A DNA stretch of 64,000 bases from a virus (IMGVR_UViG_3300012344_000020:1-64000), one strand, 5' to 3'. Positions 5,591-50,596 are shown, counted from the stretch's first letter. Translations and numbers: made by a program. Notes: a model not told the origin generated them from the letters alone.

Positions 5591-5685
5591 TGACCAATAG
5601 CACGAAAAGCACTTTTGTTGCGTCTCGTATTCGTGACATTAGTGTTATTCGTTGTTTCTTTATTAACTAATAACAACTTAAACTT

Positions 5686-6657
5686 ATGCGTAAAAACCTA
5701 ACCTTTGCAGCTATCACGATGATGGCTATCTGCATGACAACATCATGCAGCAGTGACAACGACAGCTCTATTATAGAGCCAGTGAACAACCAGCAGACTG
5801 GCAACAAGGCACACGTGCGCCTGAAGGTCGGCACGGACATGGGTGTGAGCATCAGCAATGCGGCACGGCGCAAGGCTCCGGCTACACGCGCGGCACTCAC
5901 TGCCAACGGCCGCACGTTGACCGACCTCTACATCCTCGACTACGACAAGACGACGGGCAGACTGCTTCAGGTGCTCCACCAAACGAGCACGGCAACGGAC
6001 TTCGCAGAGCCGGATTTGACGCTCGACTATGGCGAGCACACGCTGAAGGTGATAGCCACAAGGAGTGACCGCCCTACCCTGCTGGATGCTGCGTCGGCAC
6101 CCTGGACGGCGACGGCAAACGTGCTCACGCCTGTGTCGGCAGCGTCTGTGCCGGTGGCTATCACGGCAGACAAGACCTCGGACACCTTTGGCGCACAGCA
6201 GGACATCACGGTAGGCACCGGGCAGGGACAGACAGTGAGCATCACGCTGGAGCGTCTGGTGGCAAAGCTCGTTGTCAACAGCACGGATGATTTTCCGGCA
6301 GAATGCTCCACCATCACGCTGGATATGGACGAATACAAGTCGTTCTCATGGACGGACTTCTCCGTTATAGACTGTGCGAAAAATCAGCGTATCACGGATG
6401 TGTCGGCATTGGCTGGACAGCACGCCACGACCATCAACTATTTCTTCCTGGTGCCGGACGGAGGATATGCTACTGACATCACGTTCACGACCAACAGCAC
6501 CACGGGCACGCCCTACTCCACTATCACGGTGGCAGACGTACCACTGGAGCGCAACAAGGTGACGACGATTACAGGCTCGCTATATAATCACCAGATGGGG
6601 TTTTCCGTCGCATTGAACGACGAATGGGACAGCGAAGGTAACGACATCAACATCTAA
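5686..6657 (+). CDS. Fimbrillin/Mfa-like surface lipoprotein
   Basis: Signal peptide with lipobox TTSC-SSDND; beta-rich; LERLVAKL and LERNKVTTITG motifs typical of Bacteroidales pilin-like lipoproteins. Confidence 0.7.
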   Translation: MRKNLTFAAITMMAICMTTSCSSDNDSSIIEPVNNQQTGNKAHVRLKVGTDMGVSISNAARRKAPATRAALTANGRTLTDLYILDYDKTTGRLLQVLHQTSTATDFAEPDLTLDYGEHTLKVIATRSDRPTLLDAASAPWTATANVLTPVSAASVPVAITADKTSDTFGAQQDITVGTGQGQTVSITLERLVAKLVVNSTDDFPAECSTITLDMDEYKSFSWTDFSVIDCAKNQRITDVSALAGQHATTINYFFLVPDGGYATDITFTTNSTTGTPYSTITVADVPLERNKVTTITGSLYNHQMGFSVALNDEWDSEGNDINI

Positions 6658-6675
6658 ATTTTTAATGGTTTAATC

Positions 6676-6734
6676 GTCATCAAATGAATCGAATGAAACG
6701 AATAACATTTGTGTCATTTGTTTCATTTGATGAC
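6676..6734. repeat. Palindrome of two 3x9-bp arms upstream of GxxExxY; third (right-type) arm at 7134-7159
   Basis: GTCATCAAATGAATCGAATGAAACGAAT-aaca-TTTGTGTCATTTGTTTCATTTGATGAC. Confidence 0.9.
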
Positions 6735-6751
6735 CTTTTAAACGGAATGAT

Positions 6752-7129
6752 ATGAGTAATGTTTTTTATAAAGAAGAATCGTATCTGATTGGTGGGGCCA
6801 TAATCGCGGTTCACAAAGAATTGGGATGCGGGTATCTTGAACGCGTTTATCAGGATGCTTTGGAATATGAATTTAAACTCAGGAATATTCCATACGAGCG
6901 CGAAAAGCTCATACAGATAATGTATAAAGGCCAGCCGCTTGGCGAACCATATCGTGCAGACTTTGTTTGTTATAATAAGATTATTGTAGAATTGAAGGCT
7001 GTAGATGAATTACAAGGAATACATCGCTCGCAAGTTATCAATTACCTAAAGGCGACAGGAATGAAGTTGGGCTTACTGGTTAATTTTGGCGAGGAATGGG
7101 CAAACGTTGAACGTATAGTCCGTTATTAA
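6752..7129 (+). CDS. GxxExxY protein (PD-(D/E)XK nuclease superfamily)
   Basis: LGCGYLERVY signature; RADFVCYNKIIVELKAV (D-x13-ExK); GLLVNFG. Confidence 0.92.
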   Translation: MSNVFYKEESYLIGGAIIAVHKELGCGYLERVYQDALEYEFKLRNIPYEREKLIQIMYKGQPLGEPYRADFVCYNKIIVELKAVDELQGIHRSQVINYLKATGMKLGLLVNFGEEWANVERIVRY

Positions 7130-7170
7130 AATGTTCGTTTCATTTGTTTCATTTGATGATTTTTATTACT

Positions 7171-7701
7171 ATGAATAGATGTTTCTTATTTATGATTGTT
7201 TCTTGTATGATGTCGTGCGAGAAGCCAGTGATTGATTATGCAGGTGAGGATGAACCATCAGTGGTGCAGCCAGATGATGCCAGCAGTGAGCATGCCGACA
7301 CGCTGATTGCAGTGAACGACACGGCGCGGTTCTATCTCTCGCCCATGGAGATTAGTGGTGTGATGCTCCAGGACTATCCTACCCCTTCGACACTGCTTGC
7401 AGGCTCCCGTTATAGGCTGCCCCGGAAATTAGAAGTCTCGCAGGTATTGAAAACCGTTGACCTGCCCGAAGGCTACTGGCAGAGCAAGCAGCGCATCTTG
7501 TGTTATGATGATCCGCAGGACGATGGCATAAAGGTAGGCTCTACCCTATTCGGCACTGGCTACTACTATACCTATGCGCCCCACGGCACCATTACCCGCG
7601 CCGGCTACCAGACGCAATATTGCCTTCTGCCTATCCGCACAGAGCGACTGCCTAAGCAGGACGGACATGTGAATATTACGGTGGATGATGAGTGGGAGTA
7701 G
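7171..7701 (+). CDS. Putative lipoprotein
   Basis: Hydrophobic N-terminus with MMSC-EK lipobox. Confidence 0.7.
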   Translation: MNRCFLFMIVSCMMSCEKPVIDYAGEDEPSVVQPDDASSEHADTLIAVNDTARFYLSPMEISGVMLQDYPTPSTLLAGSRYRLPRKLEVSQVLKTVDLPEGYWQSKQRILCYDDPQDDGIKVGSTLFGTGYYYTYAPHGTITRAGYQTQYCLLPIRTERLPKQDGHVNITVDDEWE

Positions 7702-7719
7702 TAGTGTATTTTCGTATCT

Positions 7720-8140
7720 GCATATCTTCATACCTTTAGACTTTTATACCTTTGTACTTTCGTACATTTATACCTTTGTACGTTAATATCTACTTATGTA
7801 CGTTCATACGTTTATACTTTCGTACTTATTTATCTTCTTACTTTCTTATTTATTTATGTTCTTACTTACATTCTTTCTTATCTATATTCCTACTTACTTA
7901 CCTATATTCTTATCTACATTTTTACTTATTTACCTATCTAAATAGGTTGATAAGTAAGAAAATAGGTAGGTAGATACAAATTTAACATTTATAATTTGTG
8001 TATGTAAGATATAATTCTTAATTTTGTATCGGAATACAAAGATAGTTATCTACTTTCGTACTTAAATACTTTCATACTTTCGTATGTTTGTATGTACTTA
8101 TTTAGATACGTTTGTGTGTTCGTATATAACAACTTTAATA
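7720..8140. repeat. Degenerate TAYY/8-bp-period low-complexity array upstream of parA, a candidate centromere (parS/parC)
   Basis: Runs such as tacttatt-tatcttct-tactttct-tatttatt, flipping strand near 7940; directly before the type Ib par operon. Confidence 0.55.
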
Positions 8141-8152
8141 CTTTATAGATTT

Positions 8153-8992
8153 ATGGAAAGACTAAAAGAAGTACTCGCTATTGTGAATGACAAAGGTGGG
8201 GTAGGCAAGAGCACTACTGCCCACAATCTGGCTTGCGGCTTCATCCGCTTACGTCCCGAATACCGCGTGTTGATTATCGACCTTGATGCGCAGGTGGCAA
8301 ACGTGTCATTGCTTTGTGGCTGGCGCGACCGCACCGACAAACACGGCACTATGTACGAGGCATTGACCAACAAGACCGCTATGCCGGTGTATCAGGTGAA
8401 GGTGGACGGGCAGGACTACAACGGCAATCTCTACCTTGCTCCATCATCAGAGGATATGCTGAATGTAGAGCCGTTCCTGCTGCGCGAGATGAACCCTCTG
8501 AAGGTATTGTGCAAGCTGTTTGCCATACCCGTAATGATGCCGGAGGAGCAAGGCGGTGAGCAGAGTGTGATAGAGGCTTTCGATTACATTATTATTGACT
8601 GTCCGCCAGCCATGAACCTTGTTACTAAAAACGCTATGTCAGTGGCTACGGGTATCATCATTCCTATGCAGTTGGAGGCACTGCCGACATTCGGTTCATC
8701 AAGTGTGATACGCTGGGCGCAGGACGTTAGAGCGGAGATTAACCCAAACCTCGACCTTCGCGGCTTGCTGAAGGTGATGATTGACAAGCGCACAAAAGCA
8801 AGTGCCGGCTTCTCACAGCATATCGACGATGAATATGGCGATTATGTATTCAAGACCGAGATACCTCGGCGCACAAAGATTGTGGAAGCTCAGGCGATGA
8901 TGCAGGACATCTTTACTTATGCGCCTGAGAGTGATGCTGCCAAGAGCTACGAGGCATTTGCTCGGGAGATTATTGATACCTATAAGGATTGA
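8153..8992 (+). CDS. parA: ParA/Soj partition ATPase
   Basis: Deviant Walker A KGGVGKST, DLDAQ, IIIDCPP. Confidence 0.95.
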   Translation: MERLKEVLAIVNDKGGVGKSTTAHNLACGFIRLRPEYRVLIIDLDAQVANVSLLCGWRDRTDKHGTMYEALTNKTAMPVYQVKVDGQDYNGNLYLAPSSEDMLNVEPFLLREMNPLKVLCKLFAIPVMMPEEQGGEQSVIEAFDYIIIDCPPAMNLVTKNAMSVATGIIIPMQLEALPTFGSSSVIRWAQDVRAEINPNLDLRGLLKVMIDKRTKASAGFSQHIDDEYGDYVFKTEIPRRTKIVEAQAMMQDIFTYAPESDAAKSYEAFAREIIDTYKD

Positions 8993-9045
8993 TATGCTCC
9001 TTATAGGTTATAGAATTATTCACTGATTTTTTACGTTTATAGATT

Positions 9046-9432
9046 ATGGGTAAATTTAATTTTAAGGATACTCCTGTCGCTAAGGTGGCAGAAGAAATAC
9101 GTGAGGACGAAAACCAAATGACAGTAAAGCAGGATCAACAGACTTCTGCACCGATTCAGGAGGCTGCTCCTGCTGCAACAGAACAGACAGAGCAGGAGAA
9201 CGCTTCAGTGGAAAGTGAGAATGAGGAAAAGCCGAAAGCACCAGCAAGAAAGAAGTCATCGGCAAGTACATCCTTGCAGGCATCGAAAGCCAAAAAAAGT
9301 AAGAACGGCATTGTCATCGATGTGCCGATAGACGACTACCTGGAAATGATGCGCCTGAAGGTGATCACTGGCAAGACGCTAAAAGACTTGGCACTGCAAG
9401 CGGTGCATGAATTTATAGAGAGAAACAAATGA
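9046..9432 (+). CDS. Probable ParB/ParG-like adaptor (disordered N-terminus, C-terminal RHH-like domain)
   Basis: Small gene after parA; C-terminal IVIDVPIDDY..LKDLALQAVHEFI beta-alpha-alpha pattern. Confidence 0.6.
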   Translation: MGKFNFKDTPVAKVAEEIREDENQMTVKQDQQTSAPIQEAAPAATEQTEQENASVESENEEKPKAPARKKSSASTSLQASKAKKSKNGIVIDVPIDDYLEMMRLKVITGKTLKDLALQAVHEFIERNK

Positions 9433-9440
9433 GGTGAAAT

Positions 9441-9762
9441 GGCTACTAATGTTTTTTACCTTATTACTTTTTCTAATGAAAGGATTAGTAAAGGTGAAAT
9501 AGCTACTAAAGTTTTTTACCTTGGTAAATTAGGTACTAATGTTTTTTACCTTAAATAGGCATCTAAAGGCAAATAGGTACTAATGTTTTTTACCTATACT
9601 TTATAATATAAATAAAAGAACTATGTTTTCTTATATTATATTAGGACAGGACATTTAGTTAAGAGCTGGTTGATTATCAAAGGTTTAGATTTTCCGGAGG
9701 TAAAAAACATTAGTACCTAAATGCCCCAAAAGGTAGGTTTAAGGTAAAAAACATTAGTACCT
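9441..9762. repeat. Iterons: 4 direct and 2 inverted ~20-bp copies of (A)GGTACTAATGTTTTTTACC flanking an AT-rich core; putative plasmid origin
   Basis: Copies at 9441, 9501, 9531 and 9575 (direct), 9699 and 9743 (inverted). Confidence 0.85.
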
Positions 9763-9791
9763 AAGTTACCTAATAAGTAAAATGAATATCT

Positions 9792-10964
9792 ATGGAAGAT
9801 AACAAATCGTTGCCCCAGCAATATATAAATACTCCTTTTGCCTATACACGGCTATCCAAAAATCTGTCGCTGCTTCAGCAGTCCATGCTTAACAAGGTGA
9901 GCGAGCATCTACAGAGCTATGTACAGAAGTATTTCGGAAGCGATCTTTGTAAGTCGCGCGACATTCCGCGACCGCTTTTCTCGGATGCGGAAAAGAACAA
10001 TGGTATGCCGATATTCACGGTGTCGTATGCAGAACTCGGCGTGAGCATCAATAATTACAGTAGTGCAAATGCTGCCGTAAAAGAGGTTCTTGCGCTTACG
10101 CTCGATGCTCCGGGCGTAGATAAGGACGGTAATCCGGCTATCGTGAAGTATAACATATTTACGCAGGCAAATATGTCTTCTGATGAGAGTAATGGTGTTA
10201 CGTTCAGTTTGAATACTGCCGTTGTGGATTATGTGTTCGACATGAGCCAGGGTTACGTGAGACACCCTGCGAATATAGCCAGGATAGGACAGGTGGAACG
10301 TATGCCAATGATGTACTATTTGCTGTTCAAATGGTCAGAGCGATGGAAAAAACGAGAGGTCCGTCTTACGGTGTTGGACATAAAAGATTATCTCGGTATG
10401 CGCTCCAAGGTCAAAGATAGCAGAGGTGATGGCGAAAAGAAGAGAGCAGGAAGACCCTCGAATACGACAGATGTAATAAAAGAGGCTTATCCGAAGTTCT
10501 CTCAATTCAAAAAAATGGTGCTCGACACCAGTATTAAAGACATCAATCGTTTAAGGCATGAGGGCCTGCTTGATGTATGTGTGTCATACGAACCTGTTTA
10601 TAACGGCAAGCGGAAAGTAGGCAATCCTGCTTTTATCCGTTTTAATATCTATGACACTATTGAGGATATGGAAAAAGCGCAAAAGACTGCGCATCCTGAA
10701 TTGAGCTTCGCCGACGATAAACCGGGCGAAAGAGAGTGGCGAATGTTGGTGGATATGTATAAAGGCGAGTTGCAGGAATACATGAAGCAGTTAAAGGTAT
10801 ATTCCTATGATGGGCAAGAACTGACCGTGACTGCAACGGAAAAGCAGGTGGAGGAGTTTGAAAAGCATATTACCTTAGAAGAAAGAAATATGTTTCGCGA
10901 GTGCATGGTAAAGACCTTTGGCAAGGTCGTAAGGTTTGGCTATAATATCATAAAACGAAAATGA
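9792..10964 (+). CDS. Plasmid-type replication initiator (Rep_3/RepB-like winged helix)
   Basis: Adjacent to iterons; KEAYPKFSQFKKMVLD..IKDIN motif and VTFSLN typical of Rep_3 proteins. Confidence 0.7.
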   Translation: MEDNKSLPQQYINTPFAYTRLSKNLSLLQQSMLNKVSEHLQSYVQKYFGSDLCKSRDIPRPLFSDAEKNNGMPIFTVSYAELGVSINNYSSANAAVKEVLALTLDAPGVDKDGNPAIVKYNIFTQANMSSDESNGVTFSLNTAVVDYVFDMSQGYVRHPANIARIGQVERMPMMYYLLFKWSERWKKREVRLTVLDIKDYLGMRSKVKDSRGDGEKKRAGRPSNTTDVIKEAYPKFSQFKKMVLDTSIKDINRLRHEGLLDVCVSYEPVYNGKRKVGNPAFIRFNIYDTIEDMEKAQKTAHPELSFADDKPGEREWRMLVDMYKGELQEYMKQLKVYSYDGQELTVTATEKQVEEFEKHITLEERNMFRECMVKTFGKVVRFGYNIIKRK

Positions 10965-11010
10965 TGTTTACACCGTCTTACCCCGAATAGGGTAGGGCGG
11001 TGTTTTTGTT

Positions 11011-11045
11011 TGTCCTTACCGTTTGTTTTGATTTCAGTAACTTTG
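11011..11045 (+). promoter_or_regulatory. Putative late promoter, TGTCC-N22-TAnnTTTG class (1 of 6)
   Basis: TGTCC 11011-11015; TAACTTTG 11038-11045. Confidence 0.7.
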
Positions 11046-11049
11046 CGAC

Positions 11050-11667: not shown

Positions 11668-11671
11668 CATT

Positions 11672-11965: not shown

Positions 11966-11967
11966 AA

Positions 11968-12033
11968 TCATCGAATGAATCGAATGAAACAAATCAAGTT
12001 ATATAATTCGTGTCATTTGTTTCATTTGATGAC
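11968..12033. repeat. 3x9-bp arm palindrome (class A)
   Basis: TCATCGAATGAATCGAATGAAACAAAT ... TTCGTGTCATTTGTTTCATTTGATGAC. Confidence 0.9.
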
Positions 12034-12058
12034 AAAAATACAAACAACATATAGAGTT

Positions 12059-12580: not shown

Positions 12581-12694
12581 TATTCTTTGTCATTATATGT
12601 TTTAGTTGTAAATTAGGTTTTAGTTAGTTTTTAGTTACATTAGTTAAGTTGATTGTAGGTTTGATGTTTTGACTGTCTATTTTTCATCAAACCG

Positions 12695-12731
12695 AAGAAG
12701 CCTCCCGTCCGTGATGGATAGGAGGCTTCTT
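12695..12731. terminator. Bidirectional terminator between convergent genes
   Basis: AAGAAGCCTCC..GTGA..GGAGGCTTCTT. Confidence 0.75.
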
Positions 12732-21050: not shown

Positions 21051-21080
21051 TCAGCGAACAATCAACAAGAATATTAATTA

Positions 21081-21212
21081 TCATCGAATGATACAAATGA
21101 AACGAACAGATTGAGAACCCTACGGATAACACAGATGGCACAGATATTTTCTATCTGTAAACTTCGTGTTATCCGTAGACGAAAATTCGTTTCATTAGTT
21201 TCATTCGATGAC
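21081..21212. repeat. Nested 9-bp arm palindromes A-B-B'-A'
   Basis: A 21081-21107, B 21121-21146, B' 21152-21178, A' 21186-21212. Confidence 0.9.
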
Positions 21213-21229
21213 CAAAAGAAACAAGCAAT

Positions 21230-22411: not shown

Positions 22412-22424
22412 AAATTATAATCAT

Positions 22425-22490
22425 TCATCAAATGACACAAATGAAACGAACCTTTATTGCAAGTTATTGTCATTCGTGTTATTTGATGAC
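22425..22490. repeat. 9-bp arm palindrome (class A)
   Basis: TCATCAAATGACACAAATGAAACGAAC ... TTATTGTCATTCGTGTTATTTGATGAC. Confidence 0.85.
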
Positions 22491-22509
22491 TAAATAAAAA
22501 AAGATAAAG

Positions 22510-23507: not shown

Positions 23508-23516
23508 ATCAACAAC

Positions 23517-23714
23517 TACGGATAACGCAGATGATACGGATAAGAAAATCATCGAATGAAACAAATGACACGAATAAAAAAGAACATCGGAATGAACGGA
23601 AAGAACGGAACAGAGAAATCTGTTTTGTTTGTTGCACCTGATATTGACGGGTTCGTTTCATTCGTTTCATTTGATGAAAAATAAAATTCCGTTAATTCCG
23701 TATTTTCCGATGTT
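23517..23714. repeat. 9-bp arm cluster B, A, C, A', C' (interleaved)
   Basis: A 23549, C 23583, A' 23652, C' 23687. Confidence 0.9.
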
Positions 23715-23735
23715 TTTCAAAAACAAGAAGCAACT

Positions 23736-28355: not shown

Positions 28356-28555
28356 TGATGCGTATGAAACGAACATCGGAAGCAACAGAAATGACGGAAG
28401 ATTTCTTAAACATCAAAAGGAACAAAAGAAGCAAAAAGTTCCGTTCATTCCGTTCATTCCGATGTTAAAGAAATATCATGGCACACGCTTTTCGTTTCTT
28501 TTGATGTAAACATCCCGATGCGAAAAGGTTCGTTTCATTCGCGTTATTCGATGAC
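28356..28555. repeat. 9-bp arm cluster A, C, D, C', D', A'
   Basis: C 28374, D 28409, C' 28439, D' 28489, A' 28529. Confidence 0.9.
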
Positions 28556-28569
28556 AATAAAAAACAATA

Positions 28570-29303: not shown

Positions 29304-29442
29304 ACTCTTACCTTTGAACGTGGATAAAGACCACACCGCCCCGACGGTGCTTGCCGGATATTTCAAGTTCGGCTCGCGCACTTTGTTGCTCGGCAACTAC
29401 GGCACTACTGGGGGGGGGGGAATCTGTATTGAATATGATTAA
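29296..29442 (+). CDS. TRD-like mini-protein 2 (48 aa, APTVLAGYFKFG...GGGGICIEYD); G11 tract in frame
   Basis: ATGATTAA coupling. Confidence 0.7.
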   Translation: MIKLLPLNVDKDHTAPTVLAGYFKFGSRTLLLGNYGTTGGGGICIEYD

Positions 29443-35113: not shown

Positions 35114-35232
35114 GCGGCAACGAAGATATTTTAGGATGAATAACCACATAAAACGCAAATTTTAACTTTTGCCATAAATTGCGAAGTTTATGGGAGGGAG
35201 GGGTTCGTCGGGATGACGCGCTCCTCTTTTTT

Positions 35233-35400
35233 GTCATCTAATGAATCTAATGAAACGAATGGTTCTCAACATCGGAAGAAACGGAATAAACGGAAAGGTT
35301 CGTTTCATTCGTGTCATTCGATGACAGAAAACATTTTCGTTTGTTTCGTTCTTTTCGATGTTCAACAGAAACATTCGTGCTATTCGTGTTATTCGTTGTT
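35233..35400. repeat. 9-bp arm cluster A, C, A', D', E'
   Basis: A 35233, C 35268, A' 35299, D' 35335, E' 35374. Confidence 0.9.
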
Positions 35401-37395
35401 TTATCTTCCGCTTGGCATAAAAGCCCAACGCATCCGTCCGCGGAACAATTTTAGTCCGAGGTAGAGCGTGTCGAAGGCATCGGTGAAGTCGGTGCGCTGC
35501 TGGAGAGGCAGGTTGTCTTCGGCTTCCGGCTTTTTCTCTTGCGATTTGTCTTTATGAAAACCGCTGTAGTCCATCTTCACCTCGCAGAGCTGCATGGCGA
35601 TGATAAGGTCGGGATTGTTCGTCTGGTTGATGCGGATGGCAGGGCAGGTGAGACCCGCCAGCGCCTCGTTGATAATCTTGTGTTTCACCACATGCTTCTC
35701 CGGCACACCCATGTCGATGCCCTGCACGTTCCATCCGTAGCGTTGCAGTTCGCTGATAACCGTCATAAAGAAACGCTCGTCGGTGGCGGCATACGACGCA
35801 CCCTGCTTGGCAGTGGCATCGTAGAAATAGACCACATCACGGTTGACGGCACGCTTGGGCGCATAGTAGTTGCTGAAATCCTGAATCAGCTCGTGCAACT
35901 TGCGCTCGTTCTTCACATACATCGACTTGATAATGTTCAGCGCCAGCACACCGTCGCGCTCATACTGCTGCCCGATAACCATCGTGTTGATGTTGGCGTT
36001 GTAGTCGAGGGCGATATACAAGGGCAGCGAAGGGTCGCAGTCGGCATCCAACCGGCAGTCGTTGCGCTCGGACAGTTCCTTCAGGTCGGGCTGGTACGAC
36101 TCTGCCGTAATCTTCTTGCCGTCGATGATGCCCGTAGCCTTCTCCGTGCGAAAGGTAGCCTGCGAGAGTGGGTCTATCGTGTCGGGAATGTAACCATGGA
36201 CATGATCAATGTCGAGGTTGGAATAGAAACCGTCATTCGACTTCTTGATTTTTATGTTCAGAATTGACACGGCGAAAGTGTAGGCAGGCAGGTCGCGCTT
36301 CATCTGGCGGATATAGTCCTCACCGAGAATGTCGATATTCTCCAGCGTACTTGCCCGGCGCACCACAAAGGCAGATCGGCGCAGCTCGCGCAGATAACCC
36401 TCCTGAAACTTCTTCGACCGCAGGAACATCTGCATCTCAAAATCCTCTTCGGGCGTAATCAGATACTCATAGTCGTAGATGAGTTCGGCGTCCTCCTGCG
36501 CCACCAGTTTGTACGACACAGCCATCTGCACCATAGCCTTCGTGACGTGCAGGCCGTGGTTGGGCATGATGCGGAACTGCCCCTCGTGCTTCATCATCTT
36601 CAGTGCTACGGCGCGTATCATCTGGCGCACCTCTGCCGGGACGACATGCACCGAATGGTTGGTCTTCTTGGCATTGTAGAGCATGTCGTTGTAGCATATC
36701 ACCTTGTCGGCATAATCCTCCAACTGCTCCTGCACCCATCGGTAGGTCTTGCCTTTAAACTGCCCTGCCTCTATCTCAAGGTCAAGTTTTTCTTCTTCCT
36801 TTTCAAGCCAAGAACCCTTGGCAGTGAGCGAGGCATCGCTGACGTAGCGGGTGGACTTGTAGAGCGGATTGTAGTCAGTAAAATTGATGTCGCCCGTGGG
36901 GTGGGTCTGACCCGAAAGGGCGGGCGTAAACTCCTCGTCAATCTTCTTCTTGGGGAAGAAACGGCACTCGTCGCCCACGGCAGCCGAGAAGGTGTAGGAG
37001 TTGGCAGAGGCAGTCTGCGCCAGCGAAATCATCGCCCACTGCGCTCCGTTGGCAAACCAAATGATGTTGTCGTAGTTCTTGGGCTTGAAGATGCTTGGGC
37101 GAGCGTGTTTAGGCGGTCGTCCCCAGCCCATGTGTATGCCGATGGTGAAGCCAAACATACGCTCCATGGCCGCCATCGTGCCTGGTATGGTCTTGCTATA
37201 TCCCTGCTGTCGGCTCACGGCAAGCCATGCGCCCAGCATACCCGGCATGGAGTTGGAACACATCCATACATAGGGTGCCACCAGTCCGTCGGTCTTGCCC
37301 ACACGACGGGCGGCAATGTCGCGCTCGTCCTTGGCACCCATGTAGAGCGACTGCTGCTGAAAGCGGGTGAGGTAAATTTGATGTGGTTGCTGCAT
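35401..37395 (-). CDS. terL: Terminase large subunit
   Basis: Walker A AARRVGKT, Walker B AVGDE, RNase H-like IALDYNA and TDAFDTLY. Confidence 0.88.
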   Translation of the reverse strand: MQQPHQIYLTRFQQQSLYMGAKDERDIAARRVGKTDGLVAPYVWMCSNSMPGMLGAWLAVSRQQGYSKTIPGTMAAMERMFGFTIGIHMGWGRPPKHARPSIFKPKNYDNIIWFANGAQWAMISLAQTASANSYTFSAAVGDECRFFPKKKIDEEFTPALSGQTHPTGDINFTDYNPLYKSTRYVSDASLTAKGSWLEKEEEKLDLEIEAGQFKGKTYRWVQEQLEDYADKVICYNDMLYNAKKTNHSVHVVPAEVRQMIRAVALKMMKHEGQFRIMPNHGLHVTKAMVQMAVSYKLVAQEDAELIYDYEYLITPEEDFEMQMFLRSKKFQEGYLRELRRSAFVVRRASTLENIDILGEDYIRQMKRDLPAYTFAVSILNIKIKKSNDGFYSNLDIDHVHGYIPDTIDPLSQATFRTEKATGIIDGKKITAESYQPDLKELSERNDCRLDADCDPSLPLYIALDYNANINTMVIGQQYERDGVLALNIIKSMYVKNERKLHELIQDFSNYYAPKRAVNRDVVYFYDATAKQGASYAATDERFFMTVISELQRYGWNVQGIDMGVPEKHVVKHKIINEALAGLTCPAIRINQTNNPDLIIAMQLCEVKMDYSGFHKDKSQEKKPEAEDNLPLQQRTDFTDAFDTLYLGLKLFRGRMRWAFMPSGR

Positions 37396-37429
37396 AGTTC
37401 ATCTAATTTTGTTTGTGTTTATGTAGTGG

Positions 37430-37791
37430 AACAACAAATATCACGAATGGCACGAATGTTTTTTTAGAACATCGGAATTTACGGAATAAATGGAAATCGT
37501 TAGTGATATTGGCAACATCGAAAGAAACGAAAGAAACGAAAACATTCCGTCAATTCCGCTTCTTCCGATGTTCATTATATATTCCGTCAATTTCGTTTCT
37601 TTCGATGTTCATTATATATTCCGTCAATTCCGTTTCTTCCGATGTTCATTATATATTTCGTTTAATTCCGTTTCTTTCGATGTTCATTATATATTCCGTC
37701 AATTCCGTTTCTTCCGATGTTCATTATATTCGTGACATTCGTGTTATTCGTTGTTCCTTATATCATTCGTTGTCGCTTCGATGTCCGATGT
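37430..37791. repeat. 9-bp arm cluster E, C, D, followed by five tandem 37-38 bp units (37544-37729) and E'
   Basis: Unit ATTCCGTCAATTCCGTTTCTTCCGATGTTCATTATAT. Confidence 0.92.
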
Positions 37792-37996
37792 GCCACTTGC
37801 AGCACACCCTGCACTGATACGCCCTATACCCCTGCGCCACGAGTCGTGGTTGTTGGTTGAGCCATTCGTAGGCATCATCCTCCGTCTCGTAGCTCACCTT
37901 GGCCTTCCACCCGTGCGAACTCTTGCGCGTCCAGTGTTCAGGGTCGGGACGGAAAGGCGGACGCTTGTTGTGGTAGTGGCTATGGTTCCGCTTCAT
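37763..37996 (-). CDS. Small protein with a CxxCxxxH motif
   Basis: AYQCRVCCKWHIGH; coupled to terS. Confidence 0.6.
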   Translation of the reverse strand: MKRNHSHYHNKRPPFRPDPEHWTRKSSHGWKAKVSYETEDDAYEWLNQQPRLVAQGYRAYQCRVCCKWHIGHRSDNE

Positions 37997-38774
37997 CGTC
38001 GCTCCTTCCCTCCATCGGCATTTCAGCCTCACGTTCCTTGCGCTCATCCTCCTTCTCCATATACTCAAAGTAGTCAGGCTCCTCCTCACTGCTGTCGTTG
38101 GCAAAGAGGGCGTCATCATCCATATCCTGCAAGTCCTTCTGCGTAAGACCATACTTGCGGGCCATCTTCCGCTTGTACTCATCGGTGTAGTTCACGCGGT
38201 CGCGCTTCACAATCGACACATCCTGCGTGATGGCAATGCGGCTCATGTCCGGCATCTCGTCCGTGGCATCCTTCTCCTCCAGAAAGTTGCCGTACACATT
38301 CGCCAACGCCTGCATACCTTTGTCCACAGCTCTATCGTTGTTTTGCTGTTTGCCCGTGCGTATCAGCCACTCGGCCGAAGAGAGATACATCGCCTTGTGG
38401 CGCGGACTCTCATCGGTCATAAAGAAGCGTATCAGATGGTTGCACACCGCTACATCATTATTCAACTCCGTGACGGTGCGCGGACGGATATTGCCCTCAT
38501 CGTCCAGTCGGATGTTGAGCGCAATTATCATGGCCTGCGCCTCCTTGTTGCCCTGCGAGGCTTGGTTGAAGAACAGCTCATAGTCGCGTCGGGCAATGTT
38601 GCGGCAGGTGGTGCGCGGATCAATGTCCTTGTTTTGCACCCATCGCTTGTAGAACTCGGCACATATCTGCATACGGTATCGCTGCTCCAGCTTGGGAAAC
38701 GCCGTCTCAATCGACGTGCCGCAAGCCAGCCACTTGTCGATGCGCTGAAGAGTGCCTTGGGTTATCTGACTCAT
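37980..38774 (-). CDS. Probable terminase small subunit
   Basis: Helical protein directly upstream of terL. Confidence 0.55.
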   Translation of the reverse strand: MSQITQGTLQRIDKWLACGTSIETAFPKLEQRYRMQICAEFYKRWVQNKDIDPRTTCRNIARRDYELFFNQASQGNKEAQAMIIALNIRLDDEGNIRPRTVTELNNDVAVCNHLIRFFMTDESPRHKAMYLSSAEWLIRTGKQQNNDRAVDKGMQALANVYGNFLEEKDATDEMPDMSRIAITQDVSIVKRDRVNYTDEYKRKMARKYGLTQKDLQDMDDDALFANDSSEEEPDYFEYMEKEDERKEREAEMPMEGRSDDEAEP

Positions 38775-38807
38775 ATATCTGTTTGTGTTTTATGTTGCTC
38801 TGTCTTT

Positions 38808-39032
38808 AACATCGAAAGGAACGAAATCAAACGAAAATCTTTTTAGTCATCGAAAGTAATCGAGATTTTAGTCATCGAATGAATCAAATGAATCGAACCT
38901 TTTCGTTTCTTTCGTTTCTTTCGATGTTTCCCTTATTCGTGTCATTCGTGTCATTTGATGTTTTCATCTTATCCGTCTCATCTGCTTCTTCCGATGTTCT
39001 TCTCGTTCGTGTCATTCGTGTCATTTGATGAC
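38808..39032. repeat. 9-bp arm cluster D, A, D', A', C', A'
   Basis: D 38808, A 38871, D' 38900, A' 38936, C' 38971, A' 39006. Confidence 0.9.
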
Positions 39033-39057
39033 GACTCCTTTTTGATGTTTCTGCAAG

Positions 39058-39092
39058 CAAAGTTACTTAATCTCTTTTCCCCCATACGGACA
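39058..39092 (-). promoter_or_regulatory. TGTCC-N22-TAACTTTG promoter driving the terminase operon (3 of 6)
   Basis: GGACA 39088-39092; CAAAGTTA 39058-39065. Confidence 0.72.
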
Positions 39093-39200: not shown

Positions 39201-39752
39201 ATGCAAACAGCAGCTCCCACAATTACCCGCATCGTAGCCGGACTAATCGGCGTGCTATGGTGCTACATCGAACCGTCACTCAACTACATCGCAGTATGTT
39301 TCTTCGCACTCATCCTCGATTGCTACACCGCATGGCGATGCAACCGGCGCATCTACACGCGCTACCGAGAGGCTATCAAGCGCAACCCCAAGTGCAAGAT
39401 GGACGGCAAACTGCGAAGTAAAAAGATGGCAAAGATGGTGCAGGACTTCTCTGTGCTCATCATGGCTATCTTCCTTGCCGTGGTAATCGACCGCGACCTC
39501 TTGGCCCACATGGGTGAACTCCACCTTGCCAACTATCTGGCGGTAATCTATTGCTCCGTGCAGTTCGTGAGCATCCTCGAAAACGAAAGTACCTGCAATG
39601 GTGCGGCATGGGCAAGAGTGATGCAGAAGATAGTGGCGGACAAAACCGAACGACACTTCAACATCAAGCTCAAAGAACTCATGGAGGAGGAGAGGGAGAT
39701 TGAGAAAGACTCGACAACAAATGACACGAATGACACGAATGAAGATGATTAA
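39201..39752 (+). CDS. Phage holin-family protein
   Basis: Three TM segments; SKKMAKM..YCSVQFVSILEN motif. Confidence 0.8.
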   Translation: MQTAAPTITRIVAGLIGVLWCYIEPSLNYIAVCFFALILDCYTAWRCNRRIYTRYREAIKRNPKCKMDGKLRSKKMAKMVQDFSVLIMAIFLAVVIDRDLLAHMGELHLANYLAVIYCSVQFVSILENESTCNGAAWARVMQKIVADKTERHFNIKLKELMEEEREIEKDSTTNDTNDTNEDD

Positions 39753-39766
39753 AACGGTATTTCTTT

Positions 39767-39823
39767 CTACAGATAACACTGATTTTACGGATAAAATATC
39801 TGTTATATCCGCGTTATCCGTAG
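39767..39823. repeat. Class B 9-bp arm palindrome
   Basis: CTACAGATAACACTGATTTTACGGATA-aaa-TATCTGTTATATCCGCGTTATCCGTAG. Confidence 0.85.
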
Positions 39824-39853
39824 ACTTGAAACAACAATAAAACTCAGCAGACT

Positions 39854-47000: not shown

Positions 47001-48064
47001 GCGCGGGTGCAGTGTCTGCTGGCGCAAATGCACTGCTCAATGCTCCTATTGGCGGAAAGTCGTCTGAGGATAAGGAGAAAGACAAGCAGCGCAAGGCGGA
47101 AAAGAAGCACCAGAAAGAACTGAATAAGGAAGTAAAGCAGGGAGTAAAGGAACGTGAGAAGGAAAACAAGAAGGGTGTAGAGAATATCACGAAAGACTCT
47201 GCGGAAGCTGGCAAGGAACAGACAAAGCTGGAGGAAACAAAGCAGAATACCACCAATGCTATTGTCGAGACTGGTTTGAACACTACTTTCGTCAAGAAGC
47301 AGGAGAACGATGCCGCTGTCGTAGAACAGAGCAAGAATACGGCACAGGTTGAGAACACATTCTCTATTGTCGGAGCTATCGGCAAGTGCTTTGAGTACTT
47401 GGGCCCTATTGCTGGTCCTATTGCCGCTGCCTCGGTTATGGCTATTCTCACTGGTTTGATGCAGTGGGGTCTGAATGCAGCTTTTGGCGGCAGTAAGAAA
47501 AGTAGTTCTTCATCCACCAAGAACACCAAACTCGTTTCGGGTATGCTTACCTACGATAGCGGTAACGTGCAAGACCTCAAGCCATTCGTTGGCGACAATG
47601 GCGAAGTGTATTGGGCAACGGAGCAGGATAAGCCGCAGGGCGGCGTTAATCTCCTTACCACGCCCACCGCTACAACTATCAATGGCCAACGTTCCCTCGT
47701 AGCAGAGAATGGTCCGGAATTGGTAATCGGCCGTGAAACCACCAAGGCGATGATGATGAACAACCCATCCCTACTGAAGGCACTCGTCAATTACGACAGC
47801 AATTATTCGGGACGCAACGCGGCCCGCAGAACATTTGATGAAGGCAACGTGGGCGAGTCGGTTGGTAATTTCGCGTCAGGCGCGTCAGCGACTGACGACC
47901 TTATAACCAACAACACTGCAAGCAATGCGGCTCTCCTGCAAGCCGTAAACGCCCTCCTTCAGCGTCTTAACGAACCTATCTCCGCCAAGATAGATATGTA
48001 TGGCCGTGGTAATCTCTACGACAGCATGACCAAGGCCAATCAGTTTATGAAAGGCAAGGTGTAG
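41042..48064 (+). CDS. Tail tape measure protein
   Basis: 2340 aa helical protein; LTDIRKVSGLT..LAKIDTRTS TP901-type core; TM segments; ~60 aa internal repeats. Confidence 0.92.
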   Translation: MAKQTTEAIITLNGKQPLEVLNQLHNAAEKIKQAMEATQQKMNGMKPNDDAYKQLNATLKGLKEQYNLLSSAQVKDIEATQRLQSAVDNLASTSLKNLRKALGDGKRQIEGLSEAELEQANSIRELMKTVGDQIRLLEGKFVKIREGLASIGTQSDQWLSKAIDQQKELMSSTRRGTQEYKEQEQVLQMLTSEQNKRNAAISAEATARKQAQFKQQVASSRQMLSSGNLGNYSQSEIQTSINTLRQAQSQTAMGGTEWKQLADEIKKAEAELDKLLGKTKEVKQQMSEGEAKGILGDIGSHTEQEVREAINALKMLQSTVNVGGTQWNAYAADIEKAETELGKLTGKIKEVKAGMSESGAKATITFMDKNSESKVREAINTLRSLQSQTELGSTKWKDYADRINDAEQRLAELTGKAKGAKQELSRMDVNDRLLDLSNQSEKSLKEMLDWLQKAKLELNPYTQEWSRVADEIDRVKQRMADVQANTPYIRNEQSAQNIARQNQLQFQDGTTHDVTRQDLQWSKDYLQKQLDVTPVADTAKIKYIQEALDLIDERMKALNGDTEKATMSADKLDDVLNNMKSASLSELRDASAELKKQLDGLAPSSDDAKKIKKQLQDLDREIKQVEDDIVDVNDVIARSKNGKASISELKQAYKQLEAELEKVETGAKEFAEKHKDLENLRKKIDEVTVSAKKQGGAWNTALKNLTAYVGLFQVFNKVKDVVTGAIKKNFEYSGSLTDIRKVSGLTMEEVNKLSTELAKIDTRTSVEGLAQLAYQGAKLGMGKFGVDGMKQFVAAADQINVAIGEEMGEEALPALSKMVETMGLIPKMGIEKAMLATGSAMFKLSSTSTATSGNIVEFAKRLTGVSRTAGITTDQLLALGSASDSLFLMPEVSATAMSKFIVALQKNHNLIEKDLGIQQGTIKNMYAAGNAMDAIVLVLEKMRDKGNMNALGSIFKDLGSDGQRLVTAMVTMSKNVDVLKDHLYESQEAFEEATAVTSEYEMQQQSAIGILERANNLWEKAFVNPEGVDMVKNMAQAWYDMSELMTQSPIFKGTLSAALSLVIASVKTLVVLLPALINYIVALGVWKTITFLVTMAKSIWAAVTAQNALNAACKVNPYVALASVIMTAIGIIAGFANKANEAAKAQEEAARKANAWKDKLKDAEQQTDNMTRKLHSYKVALEQVNLSQKDRNTQIARFNRDFRQYISKLGIEIKSVSDLRKHYSALANEIQRATYYRLREEAKQDALPEFQKDRLNAADLLKKYISEKDYKYGGFSVKDVIRWFAKGADANAAYKYMIQGSLKNTYVGPRKVNPNDIKFNYSTGEYTYDHKGPYGPTRDRDKELLDRLHYLYNATQRESNKEKEIDEYFSPFVPKDYTPWVDDEPGTLENDAPDKDAIRQQKQEERDRRKAWREELKQKQDEANAIMDDVRNFYERQINQKMEDAIALGMDKTEQDLFIEPVRKRMNEALEQVRLAIAGQKNTWEQFKQTMDKDLIEKTDATGVNLSKGLLSNIQGNNIDALRNLMAQLSKNLGIPMTSTTAQIFAKASKNEQGNLSLTAKQQEARRKVAQEHDYTGVVKHNMYDDFNTMGYANPNAAEVADKVAFDKRKANIIAMYEKARKDISKIYETDVSTEEGRGLLMQILFGEDPDGMAARIKATLGNETSDWQAFYLKLLQYSDEYTEAMKKQYDDQKKIVNQMWATNKRNLAQQEAIRKMQNESDLFSKRTNLLSNLGLANLTADPEIELMKARMQAAEDYYAFVKANTQNMQLIREADDARQQAELNYANQMATAMKSRLSQMKELVQPIENFGSAVGQALATMKDDADSANEAIKSALKSMLESWGKMALNDVNTQMWKAINDAGAKRGKAKAQPDIDAARKNADANAVKENLSDIGTAGNPAHVIVDNGISVDANGNPAAPNANGNGNTEGVPQPSTQPTEPPAAWQKRNPGKTIDDYNREVQGIAAQAGSGVADVVTGNGSMGDVGAGAVSAGANALLNAPIGGKSSEDKEKDKQRKAEKKHQKELNKEVKQGVKEREKENKKGVENITKDSAEAGKEQTKLEETKQNTTNAIVETGLNTTFVKKQENDAAVVEQSKNTAQVENTFSIVGAIGKCFEYLGPIAGPIAAASVMAILTGLMQWGLNAAFGGSKKSSSSSTKNTKLVSGMLTYDSGNVQDLKPFVGDNGEVYWATEQDKPQGGVNLLTTPTATTINGQRSLVAENGPELVIGRETTKAMMMNNPSLLKALVNYDSNYSGRNAARRTFDEGNVGESVGNFASGASATDDLITNNTASNAALLQAVNALLQRLNEPISAKIDMYGRGNLYDSMTKANQFMKGKV

Positions 48065-48137
48065 GACGTTAAGTCTTACAAGGCTATCACAGACAACAAT
48101 TCTTTAGCCATGATAAATGATATGTAAATTAGGTTTG

Positions 48138-48176
48138 AGACCGCTCCGCCGTGATGGTGTGGCGGTCTTTTCTTTT
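48138..48176 (+). terminator. Intrinsic terminator after the tape measure gene
   Basis: AGACCGC..GTGA..GCGGTCT plus T-tract. Confidence 0.8.
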
Positions 48177-48220
48177 ATTCTAATCTTTCGTTGATATTGT
48201 TCTAATCTTTCACTGGGTAT

Positions 48221-48790
48221 TTTGCACCCGTTTAGAAGTGCGCACTTTAATTTTTACTTTGCACTTCTGTAAATCGTTGATAATAAAGCATTTCCGTATT
48301 ACGAGCACTTCAAAAGTGCAAAAATGCACCAAAATCCGCTACTATATATATAATTTTTCGACCATTTCTTTTTATCCCCAAAAACAAAAACCCCGAACCT
48401 CAAACGATAAGTGAGTAGCAATCACGGCTATGCCGTAAACTATTGATAATAAAGTATTTACATTGCAGAGAAATAAAGCAGTCAGTGGCGAAAAATCGTG
48501 TAGAATGGTTATATTTCTTTCTTTCTTTTATATTTTTTGTTGCTTTTACGCTCGTATAAAGTAAAAAAACAACTCCTTTTTTGCACTTTTAATAAGTAAG
48601 TAATTGAAAATTCGGGAGTTAGATGGATTTTGAGTATGCACAAACGTAGCTCAAACCATGCACTTGACTTGCACTTTTGAAAGTGAGTTTGCACTTTTGG
48701 AAGATACAAGTTGGAAAATCAAAAATGGAGTTTGCACTTTTGAAAGTGAGTTTGCACTCCTGAAGGCGCAGAAGTGCAAACTTGCATTTC
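48221..48790. repeat. Non-coding array of about 12 TGCAC(TTTT) motifs in both orientations, partly with 20-bp period; candidate second origin
   Basis: GAGTTTGCACTTTTGAAAGT units at 48669-48760. Confidence 0.65.
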
Positions 48791-48797
48791 GGGTGAT

Positions 48798-49703
48798 TTA
48801 GTAGGTCTTTTCCAGTTCGTTGATATAAGGAATAGCCTCCTGGCGGATGATGTCGAGAAGTATTCGAGCTGAGCGTTTGAGCGGCACATCCTTCATCCAG
48901 TGGGCATTGCTCATCAGTTCGTTTTCAAGTCCGATGATAGGCTTCGCCACCAGGGTAGGGTGGTTCTTCAGATAGAGTTTGGACATGAAAGTTACGCTTT
49001 GCGTTTCCTCGACGATGGCAAGATCTTCGTCGGGATCACTCACTATGCACTTCACGTTGAGTTTGGTGAGGTCGTGTTGCAGGTATCGCTGAAAGGTATT
49101 GAACACTCGGTCGCCTACGTCCGGCATAATGACGCTATGTCGGAGGATGTCGCTGTACGACACCTTGGGCAGTCGGGCGAGTGGGTGAGTATTTCGCATC
49201 ACGGCATAGATATGGAATGGTATGCACGGCACTGATTCTATACCCTCATGACCATAGGCGGTATTCATGGTAAAGGCAATGTCGAGCTCGTGATTGCGCA
49301 ATAAGCGGTTCAGACTGGAGGCTTTGGTCAGTTCGGCATTGAGCTGGACATTAGGATAACGCTCCATAAAGATGAGCGCAGCCACACGGATATAGGGAGC
49401 AATGAACGAACCGACACCGATACGCAGTTCGCCTGTCATGCAGTTGTTGAGCGCATGAATATGTTCCTTGCAGTCCTCTGTCTGTTTGATTATCTCTTTG
49501 GCTCGTGGAAGCAAGGCTTCGCCATTCTCGGTGAGTGTGATGTCGTGAGAAGTACGGATGAGCAACTTGCACCCCAGTTCATCCTCCAGGGCTTTGATGT
49601 GTTGGCTGACGGCAGACTGAGTGATGCAACATCGTGTGGCGGCAACAGAGAAAGAAAGATTTTCCGCCACGAAAACAAAAGAACGTAAATGTCGTAGTTC
49701 CAT
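48798..49703 (-). CDS. LysR-family transcriptional regulator
   Basis: MELRHLRSF..SFSVAATRCCITQSAVSQHIKALEDELG. Confidence 0.96.
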   Translation of the reverse strand: MELRHLRSFVFVAENLSFSVAATRCCITQSAVSQHIKALEDELGCKLLIRTSHDITLTENGEALLPRAKEIIKQTEDCKEHIHALNNCMTGELRIGVGSFIAPYIRVAALIFMERYPNVQLNAELTKASSLNRLLRNHELDIAFTMNTAYGHEGIESVPCIPFHIYAVMRNTHPLARLPKVSYSDILRHSVIMPDVGDRVFNTFQRYLQHDLTKLNVKCIVSDPDEDLAIVEETQSVTFMSKLYLKNHPTLVAKPIIGLENELMSNAHWMKDVPLKRSARILLDIIRQEAIPYINELEKTY

Positions 49704-49735
49704 AGTCGTAGTTTTTAGTTGAAAAAATCTAATTG

Positions 49736-49773
49736 CAAAGGTAGATAAACTTTGCTTATCACAAGACGATAAT
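49736..49773 (-). promoter_or_regulatory. LysR gene promoter (-7 TACCTTTG) overlapped by the LysR box TTATC-N7-GATAA
   Basis: CAAAGGTA 49736-49743; palindrome 49757-49773. Confidence 0.6.
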
Positions 49774-49874
49774 CAAAAAGAAATGCTAATAGAAAGATAA
49801 GCGAGCGATGAAGGAACAACGGAAGTCCCCTTGCGGCAGGTGAGTGGCGCAAGGGGACTTGATTATCTCTATAC

Positions 49875-50378
49875 TTACATCATTGCGTGCATGGCTGTAT
49901 AGTCCCATATCTTGGTGCAGTCATCGTCCCCTTGCCAGTCGGCATCGCAGAAATAGAACAGATAGGCTGCACGTATGATTTCCTCGTCCTTCATGTTGGT
50001 GCATAGGTCGGCATACATGGAGTTGAAGGCAACGTATTTGTCCCATCCGTTTACTTTCGGGTGGAACTCCATACCGCGTGTGGCTTCCTCTATCTTTGCC
50101 CGCGTCCAGTGAGGACCGTGCAGGGTAGGCTGTCCCTCCTCGTCAAGTTCGCCATACTCCAGGCGGTTCACGTCGTGGTTGGCAAACTTCTCACTGTAAT
50201 GTCTGTCGTATAGCACGGCATGTTGGTGGCGCATGATACGCCAGTAGACTTCCGGATTATCATTTTTGATAATTTCGAGGTCGCACGACATCTGCTCAAT
50301 GGCAGCGTTCATCTTCTTCTCGGAGGCTACGCCTGTGGCGCGAGCCTGTTCTATCAACTGAATATACTTCATAATCAT
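49875..50378 (-). CDS. Conserved helical phage protein of unknown function
   Basis: GPHWT..NGWDKYVAFNSMYADL..DAD..KIWDY. Confidence 0.8.
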   Translation of the reverse strand: MIMKYIQLIEQARATGVASEKKMNAAIEQMSCDLEIIKNDNPEVYWRIMRHQHAVLYDRHYSEKFANHDVNRLEYGELDEEGQPTLHGPHWTRAKIEEATRGMEFHPKVNGWDKYVAFNSMYADLCTNMKDEEIIRAAYLFYFCDADWQGDDDCTKIWDYTAMHAMM

Positions 50379-50390
50379 TATGTTTTTATT

Positions 50391-50596
50391 GTCATCGAAT
50401 GACACAAATGAAACGAATGATTAAACATCAAAAGAAACGAAAGAAACAAAAGTTTTACGTTGCATTTTCAATATCAAAGGAAACGGTATTGGCGCAAAAA
50501 GATTTGTTTCATTCGTGTCATTTGATGACATATTTTTTGTTTCTTTTGATATTCCGTTACTTCCGATGTTCGCGTTATTAGTCTCATTCGATGATG
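50391..50596. repeat. 9-bp arm cluster A, D, A', D', C'
   Basis: A 50391, D 50424, A' 50503. Confidence 0.88.

Follow-up and report, generated by a model that had tools for sequence, protein, structure and literature searches.

The DNA analysed here, called the window below, is a stretch of 64,000 nucleotides (IMGVR_UViG_3300012344_000020:1-64000) that forms the first part of a single virus record of 89,413 bp, with an estimated completeness of 90%. The window encodes ParA, a Rep3-like initiator that has iterons of its own, the DnaN clamp, several DNA methylases, an HU-like protein, a holin, a 2,340-aa tape-measure protein, a helix-turn-helix protein and one GxxExxY protein, and a terminase pair is encoded on its minus strand. 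The gaps between the genes of this phage hold a family of short periodic repeats, referred to as arms, which pair with inverted copies to form long hairpins. The GxxExxY gene (TIGR04256 / PF13366; 6752..7129, plus strand) itself stands between two such arms, A+ 6678 and A- 7134, in the layout P-Y-gene-Y. Comparison with related phages and with bacterial genomes showed that the arms form a family, that this family is shared by host and phage, that the arms turn over at gene junctions, that they flank GxxExxY genes and correlate with their presence, and that the arm word is specific to the kind of gene enclosed.

Periodic arms in the phage genome and its relatives

About 50 arms were found in 14 intergenic clusters over the 89-kb genome, 13 of them in the window. 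The first-pass annotation had described arms of five sequence classes (A to E) at 12 loci. All 12 hold such arms, and inverted-repeat and period scans recovered every one; further arms were found at 7134, at 39715 and in the fourteenth cluster (65199-65431), which lies beyond the window. A fuzzy pattern made of the anchor and 2.7 units gave 57 matches in the 89,413-bp genome compared to 1-4 in Markov shuffles. With the class-free grammar C[AT][TA]C(RRANNNNAY)2RRA, allowing at most one mismatch, 49 matches were obtained compared to 2 on the reversed sequence. Self-similarity at period 9 was 4-10 times commoner than at periods 5-13.

Each arm is built from an outer CATC, CAAC or CTAC anchor and, next to it, units of 8-9 nt in which AC-RRA is kept. 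CATC is the end of most arms, and among the phage classes the CTAC/GTAG end occurs in class B only. A single arm carries 2-4 direct units and is not a palindrome. In class A the invariant positions are TCATC.AATGA..C.AATGA.AC.AA, and the remaining positions vary independently between the two partners. The earlier claim that paired arms match by class was borne out in this genome as far as the class is concerned, but partners are no closer to each other (21.1/25 positions shared) than to same-class arms from other loci (21.5/25), and no covariation within a class was detected by this comparison. Among the relatives, only 52% of the variable positions agree between adjacent partners, compared to 40% for shuffled partners. 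The paired arms give A/U-rich stems of 25-29 bp with very stable folds, and on both strands the flanks are T-rich before the stems and A-rich after them. Testing G.U against A.C pairs and comparing folding energies in this phage showed no sense-strand G.U bias and about equally stable sense and antisense folds. A search of the window against Rfam at gathering thresholds matched no family and no rRNA.

Every cluster sits in a gap between long open reading frames (ORFs) and inside an operon, in agreement with the first-pass annotation, which had placed the arms mainly between co-transcribed genes. The clusters mostly begin 3-30 nt past a stop codon and finish 12-38 nt ahead of the next start codon. 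Promoter-like sites (TGTCC-N~21-TAnnTTTG or TTTG...TAnnTTTG) lie away from the arms; only cluster 11 adjoins one, and it lies downstream of the promoter. A standard Bacteroidota promoter within the pyrimidine arms was considered and ruled out, as TTTG is not conserved there and the promoter-like sites are elsewhere.

The spacing of paired arms ranges from 3 to ~100 nt and reaches up to 2 kb. Among themselves, arms of classes A, C and D always show an interleaved order (1 2 1' 2'), as seen in six clusters, whereas B pairs are tight and nested and E arms or pairs are outermost. The first arm is a single one of class E (CAAC GAATAACAC TAATGTCAC GAA; 5627..5657, minus strand) that has only a degenerate partner just upstream (~5593-5612). 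Cluster 2 (6675..6735), between the DUF6562 and GxxExxY genes, is a class A pair of A+ 6678 and A- 6708 whose loop has 5 nt, and a further class A arm (7131..7161, minus strand) starts 4 nt past the GxxExxY stop codon and pairs with A+ 6678 across the gene. Clusters 4 (11966..12034) and 6 (22423..22491, downstream of DnaN) are class A pairs as well. Between them, upstream of the DnaN clamp gene, cluster 5 (21079..21213) has the nested order A+ [B+ B-] A-. Cluster 7 (23513..23715) is interleaved, B+ A+ C+ (degenerate B-) A- C-, and in cluster 8 (28356..28556), with the order (A+) C+ D+ C- D- A-, the C and D arms are interleaved within the A pair. Cluster 12 (39712..39826) consists of an E/A-like plus arm at 39715 and a tight class B pair at 39767/39799. 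Cluster 13 (50390..50596), A+ D+ (C+) A- D- C- A-, lies within a minus-strand operon.

Clusters 9 to 11 are found around the terminase genes. Cluster 9 (35232..35401), with the order A+ C+ A- D- E-, stands at the 3' end of the gene for the terminase large subunit, and its E- arm at 35374 pairs with E+ 37432 (28/32 positions) across this entire gene. Cluster 10 (37429..37756) lies between the two minus-strand terminase genes and consists of E+ C+ D+, five C- or D- arms in a tandem array, and E-. The array (37544-37729) comprises five 37-nt units, each with a C- or D-type pyrimidine arm and the linker ATTATATA, so that minus arms far outnumber plus arms in this cluster. Cluster 11 (38807..39033), with the order D+ x A+ D- A- C- A-, forms part of the 5' leader of the minus-strand terminase operon, which has a promoter-like site at 39058 (-). 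The two genes encode the terminase large subunit (664 aa, Walker A GKTDG; 35401-37395, minus strand) and a probable small subunit (264 aa; 37980-38774, minus strand). With this assignment, the two proteins were ruled out as a candidate transposase. The terminase genes stand on the minus strand within an otherwise plus-strand region and have their own promoter-like site. Their products are the best conserved proteins among the relatives (79-84% identity), and the three largest arm clusters lie around them. The seeming lack of terminase genes in the relative G2 is a contig-end artefact.

A comparison of orthologous sites revealed that the arms are not fixed, as close relatives have other classes or nothing at the same junctions. 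In L011 (13 kb, ~85% nucleotide identity) a hairpin is kept downstream of DnaN, but it is formed by a pair of the CTAC-AGAAAGCAC class; upstream of DnaN, at the cluster 5 site, the A arms are kept and D-type arms stand inside instead. No hairpin was found at the cluster 5 site in G2 and G5, and G2 has the same early gene order with short junctions that lack hairpins. At the site of cluster 4, L024 has three arms of other classes, and other classes also occupy the site of cluster 12 in G4, G5 and L027. The near-complete relatives G4 and G5 show collinear blocks of 95-97% identity that break at arm cassettes. Three of the junctions have classes that are unrelated, while at others arms are present or absent, or small ORFs have been added on either side of a cluster that is retained. 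Across the relatives at least eight arm classes were found and both arm orders occur. Direct repeats flank only two insertions, GCGGC/ACGGC in one and a TTTGTGT microhomology in another.

Two further arrangements were observed in relatives. In L023 (3190-3290) the HU-like gene is followed by an inserted arm pair that is pyrimidine-first ('inside-out'), with the anchors on the loop side; this pair is flanked by ACGGC/GCGGC and is absent from the phage studied here and from L001. The relative G3 carries a second hairpin family with a 7-nt period (TCAAAAY) together with a small GC hairpin (TCGCC-N4-GGCGA). This family (L043:9943-10090, L043:18033-18190 and L044:3127-5370) occupies the junctions that are orthologous to those of clusters 4-7, 9 and 10, and the terminase gene is flanked by it. 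The terminase gene stands between matched arms in the phage studied here and, with another word, in G3.

Prevotella chromosomes and the GxxExxY gene

The class-free grammar was matched in 155 of 301 genomes of the genus Prevotella. Thirty-eight genomes, called arm-rich in the following, have 10-115 copies of the strict grammar, while reversed-pattern controls in Prevotella genomes gave 0-3. A class-A-specific pattern yielded only four matches across 185,579 species genomes. As the class-free grammar is abundant in Prevotella chromosomes, we conclude that the phage arms belong to a host-wide dispersed family. Arm-rich host genomes have one dominant class each, mostly as plus/minus pairs 10-35 nt apart just past stop codons. 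The arms of two Prevotella genomes (G083 and G238) are identical to phage class D, and the motif was also found on a small contig of a Prevotella metagenome-assembled genome. For these two reasons the host of the phage is most likely Prevotella. In another host genome, G071, the loops of arm pairs (L111, L123, L124 and L125) hold a nested structured element of ~200 nt (GACGCTGAAAGCGTCACC... CCGTAGG...). This element is itself flanked by CCACGAATT-type arms, giving mosaics in the host that resemble bacterial interspersed mosaic elements (BIMEs).

The GxxExxY protein of the phage has ~125 aa and belongs to the PD-(D/E)XK nuclease family. It scores 146.7 bits against TIGR04256 (cut-off 35) and matches PF13366 with E=4.7e-41. 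The catalytic residues D70, E80 and K82 are invariant across 30 sequences. A confident AlphaFold model (pLDDT 94.7) predicts a PD-(D/E)XK core like that of Cas4 and lambda exonuclease; Cas4 SSO0001, lambda exonuclease and MGME1 matched best in structure, and an archaeal Holliday-junction resolvase ranked lower. A sequence search of the PDB with this protein found no relative. To our knowledge, no function has been assigned to the GxxExxY proteins, which are encoded by thousands of genes, since the family was defined, and the same holds by extension for the four-helix-bundle proteins of the 23S rRNA intervening sequences. Literature searches on GxxExxY, PF13366 and TIGR04256 found no functional study, and a 2012 survey of PD-(D/E)XK proteins gives the function of PF13366 as 'Unknown' (PMC3424549).

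At one orthologous site, three phage genomes have the GxxExxY gene between matched arms of three different classes, namely class A in the phage studied here, class C in L024 and arms of the CGCAGAAAN word in G3. The association was quantified with a flank score, for which the 150 nt preceding the ORF were compared with the 150 nt following it and the best inverted 22-mer was taken. The mean score was 18.15/22 for 40 Prevotella GxxExxY loci compared to 14.09 in 222 control windows (p=6e-18), and 17.4/22 for 30 loci sampled across Bacteroidota compared to 14.3 in controls (p=9e-12). At most of these 70 Bacteroidota loci the gene stands between matched inverted periodic arms, often 8-23 nt ahead of the ATG and -6 to 45 nt past the stop codon, with which they sometimes overlap. 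For four genomes that were checked, the word in the flanks proved to be that of the genome's own dispersed family (56, 111, 148 and 43 copies). The closest host homologue (66% identity), from a genome that shares the class D arms, shows the same P-Y-gene-Y layout.

A scan of host genomes for both features showed that the GxxExxY gene is more often present where arms are abundant (33/38 arm-rich genomes vs 128/263 others), with an odds ratio of 7.0 (p=6.8e-6) that is based on raw counts and ignores phylogeny, genome size and completeness. For comparison, the odds ratio of the Y1 transposase was only 2.4, a weak association. Neither a Y1 transposase (PF01797) nor a tyrosine recombinase was found in the phage, and 0/10 Y1 genes in arm-rich hosts were flanked by arms. 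On these findings the idea of a RAYT system was rejected.

Prevotella genes of PF05635, the family of the protein encoded in intervening sequences (IVSs) of 23S rRNA, are arm-flanked in the same way (18.2 vs 13.8, p=1e-14). Their arms (L164-L192) have RGTT words such as GGAGTTAA or ACRAGTTG, and the loci lie outside rRNA genes. AC-RRA arms occur with GxxExxY and RGTT arms with PF05635 (19:1 vs 0:16, p=2e-9). This specificity argues for a protein-specific relation to the arms, as it is not predicted by a model in which the hairpins are generic landing pads.

A proposed hairpin system with a nuclease gene, and its alternatives

We propose that the arms are the phage branch of a Bacteroidota-wide hairpin family in a selfish system similar to IVSs and REPINs, in which one copy carries a nuclease gene and many hairpins carry none. 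We give this explanation an even chance of being correct. The element would consist of two parts, the gene-carrying copy (6678-7158) and about 25 gene-less arm pairs, which may be its derivatives or its targets. We infer that the nuclease, either from a gene in cis or from the host, cleaves folded arms or sites close to them, and that recombinational repair then copies or replaces arm cassettes. Such copying or replacement would explain the fast turnover of the junctions. By analogy to the intervening sequences of 23S rRNA, a transcribed pair would fold into a stem of 25-29 bp. RNase III would probably accept this stem as a substrate, and for this reason insertions that separate cistrons might be tolerated; its processing may split the operon RNA. 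A wider idea is more tentative: GxxExxY might be the nuclease partner of an unrecognised class of hairpin repeats, a PD-(D/E)XK counterpart of the RAYT-REPIN system, with PF05635 as a parallel system and both moving between Bacteroidota chromosomes and phages. We consider this possible but somewhat doubtful.

Four known systems resemble the arms in part. Elements of the REP (repetitive extragenic palindromic) and REPIN type, together with their RAYT transposase, were reportedly described by Nunvar in 2010 and by Bertels and Rainey in 2011. Like these, the arms are dispersed short intergenic repeats whose inverted doublets form long hairpins, with one dominant class per genome, mosaic clusters that resemble BIMEs, a small nuclease-type gene between the genome's own repeats and a conserved end tetranucleotide (GTAG in REPs; CATC, CAAC or CTAC in the arms). 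However, the gene flanked here is of the PD-(D/E)XK type (TIGR04256) and not a Y1 HUH transposase, it often occurs in several copies per genome, and the arms are abundant in phage genomes. A single REP is an imperfect palindrome with a GTAG head, whereas a single arm is made of direct units without a palindrome. In the IVS of Coxiella, a terminal 28-bp stem, which RNase III cuts, encloses a loop with a small ORF; this IVS is seen as a selfish element whose mobility is unknown (PMC4990558). What the IVS with its S23p / PF05635 ORF and the arms have in common is a pair of terminal inverted repeats of ~28 bp with the small ORF in the loop between them, and Prevotella PF05635 genes are flanked by arms in the same manner. 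The arms differ in being located between protein genes instead of in helix 25 or 45 of 23S rRNA, in the ORF family (PF13366) and arm word, and in the large numbers of gene-less copies.

The promoter early stem-loops (PeSLs) of T4-type phages combine a sigma-70-type early promoter with a transcription-terminating stem-loop (PMC2839356, PMC4122927). They are likewise repeated intergenic phage stem-loops that flank accessory ORFs and are found at insertion, deletion or replacement differences between close relatives, and no dedicated recombinase is known for either PeSLs or arms. The arms, on the other hand, lack the defining adjacent promoter and the U tract and are common to phage and host chromosome. 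Miniature inverted-repeat transposable elements, or MITEs, are common to prokaryotes and viruses, and they have been reported for only a few groups of phages, Prevotella phages included (PMC11602168). The arms resemble MITEs as small non-coding inverted-repeat elements in a phage and its host genus. In contrast to MITEs, the arms have no known parent that shares their ends and bears a transposase; the PD-(D/E)XK protein of the gene-carrying copy is not known to be a transposase, no consistent target-site duplication was seen, and the arms are periodic and stand in interleaved multi-class clusters.

Several observations weigh against the proposed system. No transposition or cleavage event was observed. 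The relatives G4 (99% complete) and G5 (94%) have 23 arms each and no GxxExxY gene; any action of the nuclease there would therefore have to come from the host in trans. Among the 38 arm-rich host genomes, no GxxExxY gene was seen in 5, and arms of the strict 9-nt grammar are few in several of the gene-rich genomes. The raw counts behind the odds ratio, with the factors they ignore, belong here as well. The insertion boundaries are not clean and most differences look like patch replacement, and the repeats nested in host hairpin loops suggest that loops may be favoured landing sites. In addition, simple nested insertion does not give rise to the interleaved order seen for the A, C and D arms; our best guess is that this order results from selection against long perfect palindromes or from competing folds. 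The suggestion of the first-pass annotation that the arms were spread by a GxxExxY system is upheld as to the link, which is seen in the flanking, the own-family arms, the co-occurrence and the word specificity and reaches further than that annotation could see, and is weakened by the arms without the gene in G4 and G5. That annotation had also considered that the arms might be fixed across relatives, unlinked to GxxExxY and ordinary terminators; we found them to be unfixed, linked to the gene and unlike ordinary terminators.

Assuming that the hairpins are mainly selected RNA signals, stems that RNase III cuts, that stop exonucleases or that protect the A-rich region around translation starts would set relative gene output in the phage operons, and GxxExxY would be just one of the cistrons. 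This would fit the location of all clusters in transcribed intra-operon gaps, away from promoter-like sites and with cluster ends 12-38 nt before the next start codon, and also the very stable folds, the hairpins that are retained at the same site when the class is swapped, and the terminase gene enclosed by matched arms of different words in two phages. Moreover, the stem length of 25-29 bp suits RNA processing, IVS stems are RNase III substrates, and three hairpins of G4 and G5 pair fully on the sense strand only, via 4-6 G.U pairs. In the phage studied here, however, neither G.U pairs nor folding energies favour the sense strand, and the lack of covariation within a class is also difficult to reconcile with selected stems, as is the conservation of the AC-RRA grammar and of the anchors, neither of which is needed for pairing. 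In G2, with the same gene order, the junctions are short and free of hairpins, in G5 there is no hairpin upstream of DnaN, and the same family is dispersed in host chromosomes. Overall, we regard such an origin as unlikely. It is also rather improbable, in our view, that the arms were spread by other means (general recombination, gene conversion or an unidentified host enzyme) and that the GxxExxY genes are passengers homing into loops. Each gene family has its own arm word, which would not be predicted unless each nuclease homes on its own word; the phage encodes neither a Y1 transposase nor a tyrosine recombinase, and none of the ten host Y1 genes is arm-flanked. What such a passenger model does explain are the other nested elements in host hairpin loops, the PF05635 genes in hairpin loops, the arms in phages without the gene, and the resemblance of arm replacement to recombinational patching, with some breakpoints at short repeats.

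A very improbable explanation is that the arms are duplex-DNA binding sites for a protein that reads the 9-bp AC-RRA repeat, such as operators like those of phage P1, partition sites or packaging sites. The invariant positions do have a 9-bp spacing while the variable ones differ freely between partners, the largest clusters flank the terminase genes, and the phage encodes ParA, Rep3-like, helix-turn-helix and HU-like proteins. Such sites would hardly be expected with arm spacings from 3 to ~100 nt and up to 2 kb, with at least eight classes and both arm orders across relatives, without adjoining promoter-like sites, and with gain and loss between genomes of 95-97% identity; furthermore, the Rep iterons and par-like repeats are unrelated in sequence. 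That the arms are ordinary intrinsic terminators or attenuators of shared ancestry is scarcely credible, even if they are stable stem-loops after stop codons. The A/U-rich stems of 25-29 bp and the flanks, which are the reverse of those of a terminator on both strands, argue against intrinsic terminators, and the missing U tract and the missing link to promoters argue against ordinary terminators in general. They are also placed between genes of one operon, with several in tandem or interleaved arrays. An integron attC origin, considered because the CAAC...GTTG ends resemble core sites, was dropped, as a tyrosine recombinase is lacking and CATC is the usual end of the arms. Four further ideas (CRISPR-repeat mimicry, type III toxin-antitoxin repeats, Chi-like sites and telomerase-like templated addition) were set aside, as none of them accounts for the host-wide family or for the gene flanking.

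The proposed system of hairpins and a nuclease would provide a concrete candidate substrate for GxxExxY and, by extension, for the four-helix-bundle proteins of the IVS type, namely the periodic arms that flank each gene. The arms form a large repeat family that has not been catalogued; it is present in Prevotella of gut and rumen and lacks an Rfam match, and the family would explain why gene junctions change fastest in these phages. As they are common to phage and host, the arms could be used as a marker for host assignment. If RNase III cuts the stems, they might also shape the expression of phage operons.

Other repeats and promoter-like sites

Two other repeat regions were found in the window. 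Iteron-like 30-nt repeats of the GGTAAAAAACATTAGTACCTAA type together with a 73-nt inverted pair (9430-9780) lie directly upstream of the Rep3-like gene (9792-10964). This region is probably a plasmid-type origin and unrelated to the arms. A dense T/C-rich block of tandem repeats (7753-8081; units of 8-44 nt, TACTTTC-type) is located upstream of the ParA gene (8084-8992) and is a candidate partition site. Together with Rep, this candidate site suggests a phage-plasmid lifestyle. The arms themselves were ruled out as Rep iterons or par sites, as those repeats are different sequences.

A recurrent promoter-like motif, TGTCC(T)-N~21-TAnnTTTG, precedes gene blocks and is separate from the arms. 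It was found at 29309, 34098, 39058 (-), 39146, 59481 and 63476, and at 75642 of the full record, beyond the window. Also beyond the window, a run of ~18 G (69422-69457 of the full record) is located in or adjoining a small minus-strand ORF.

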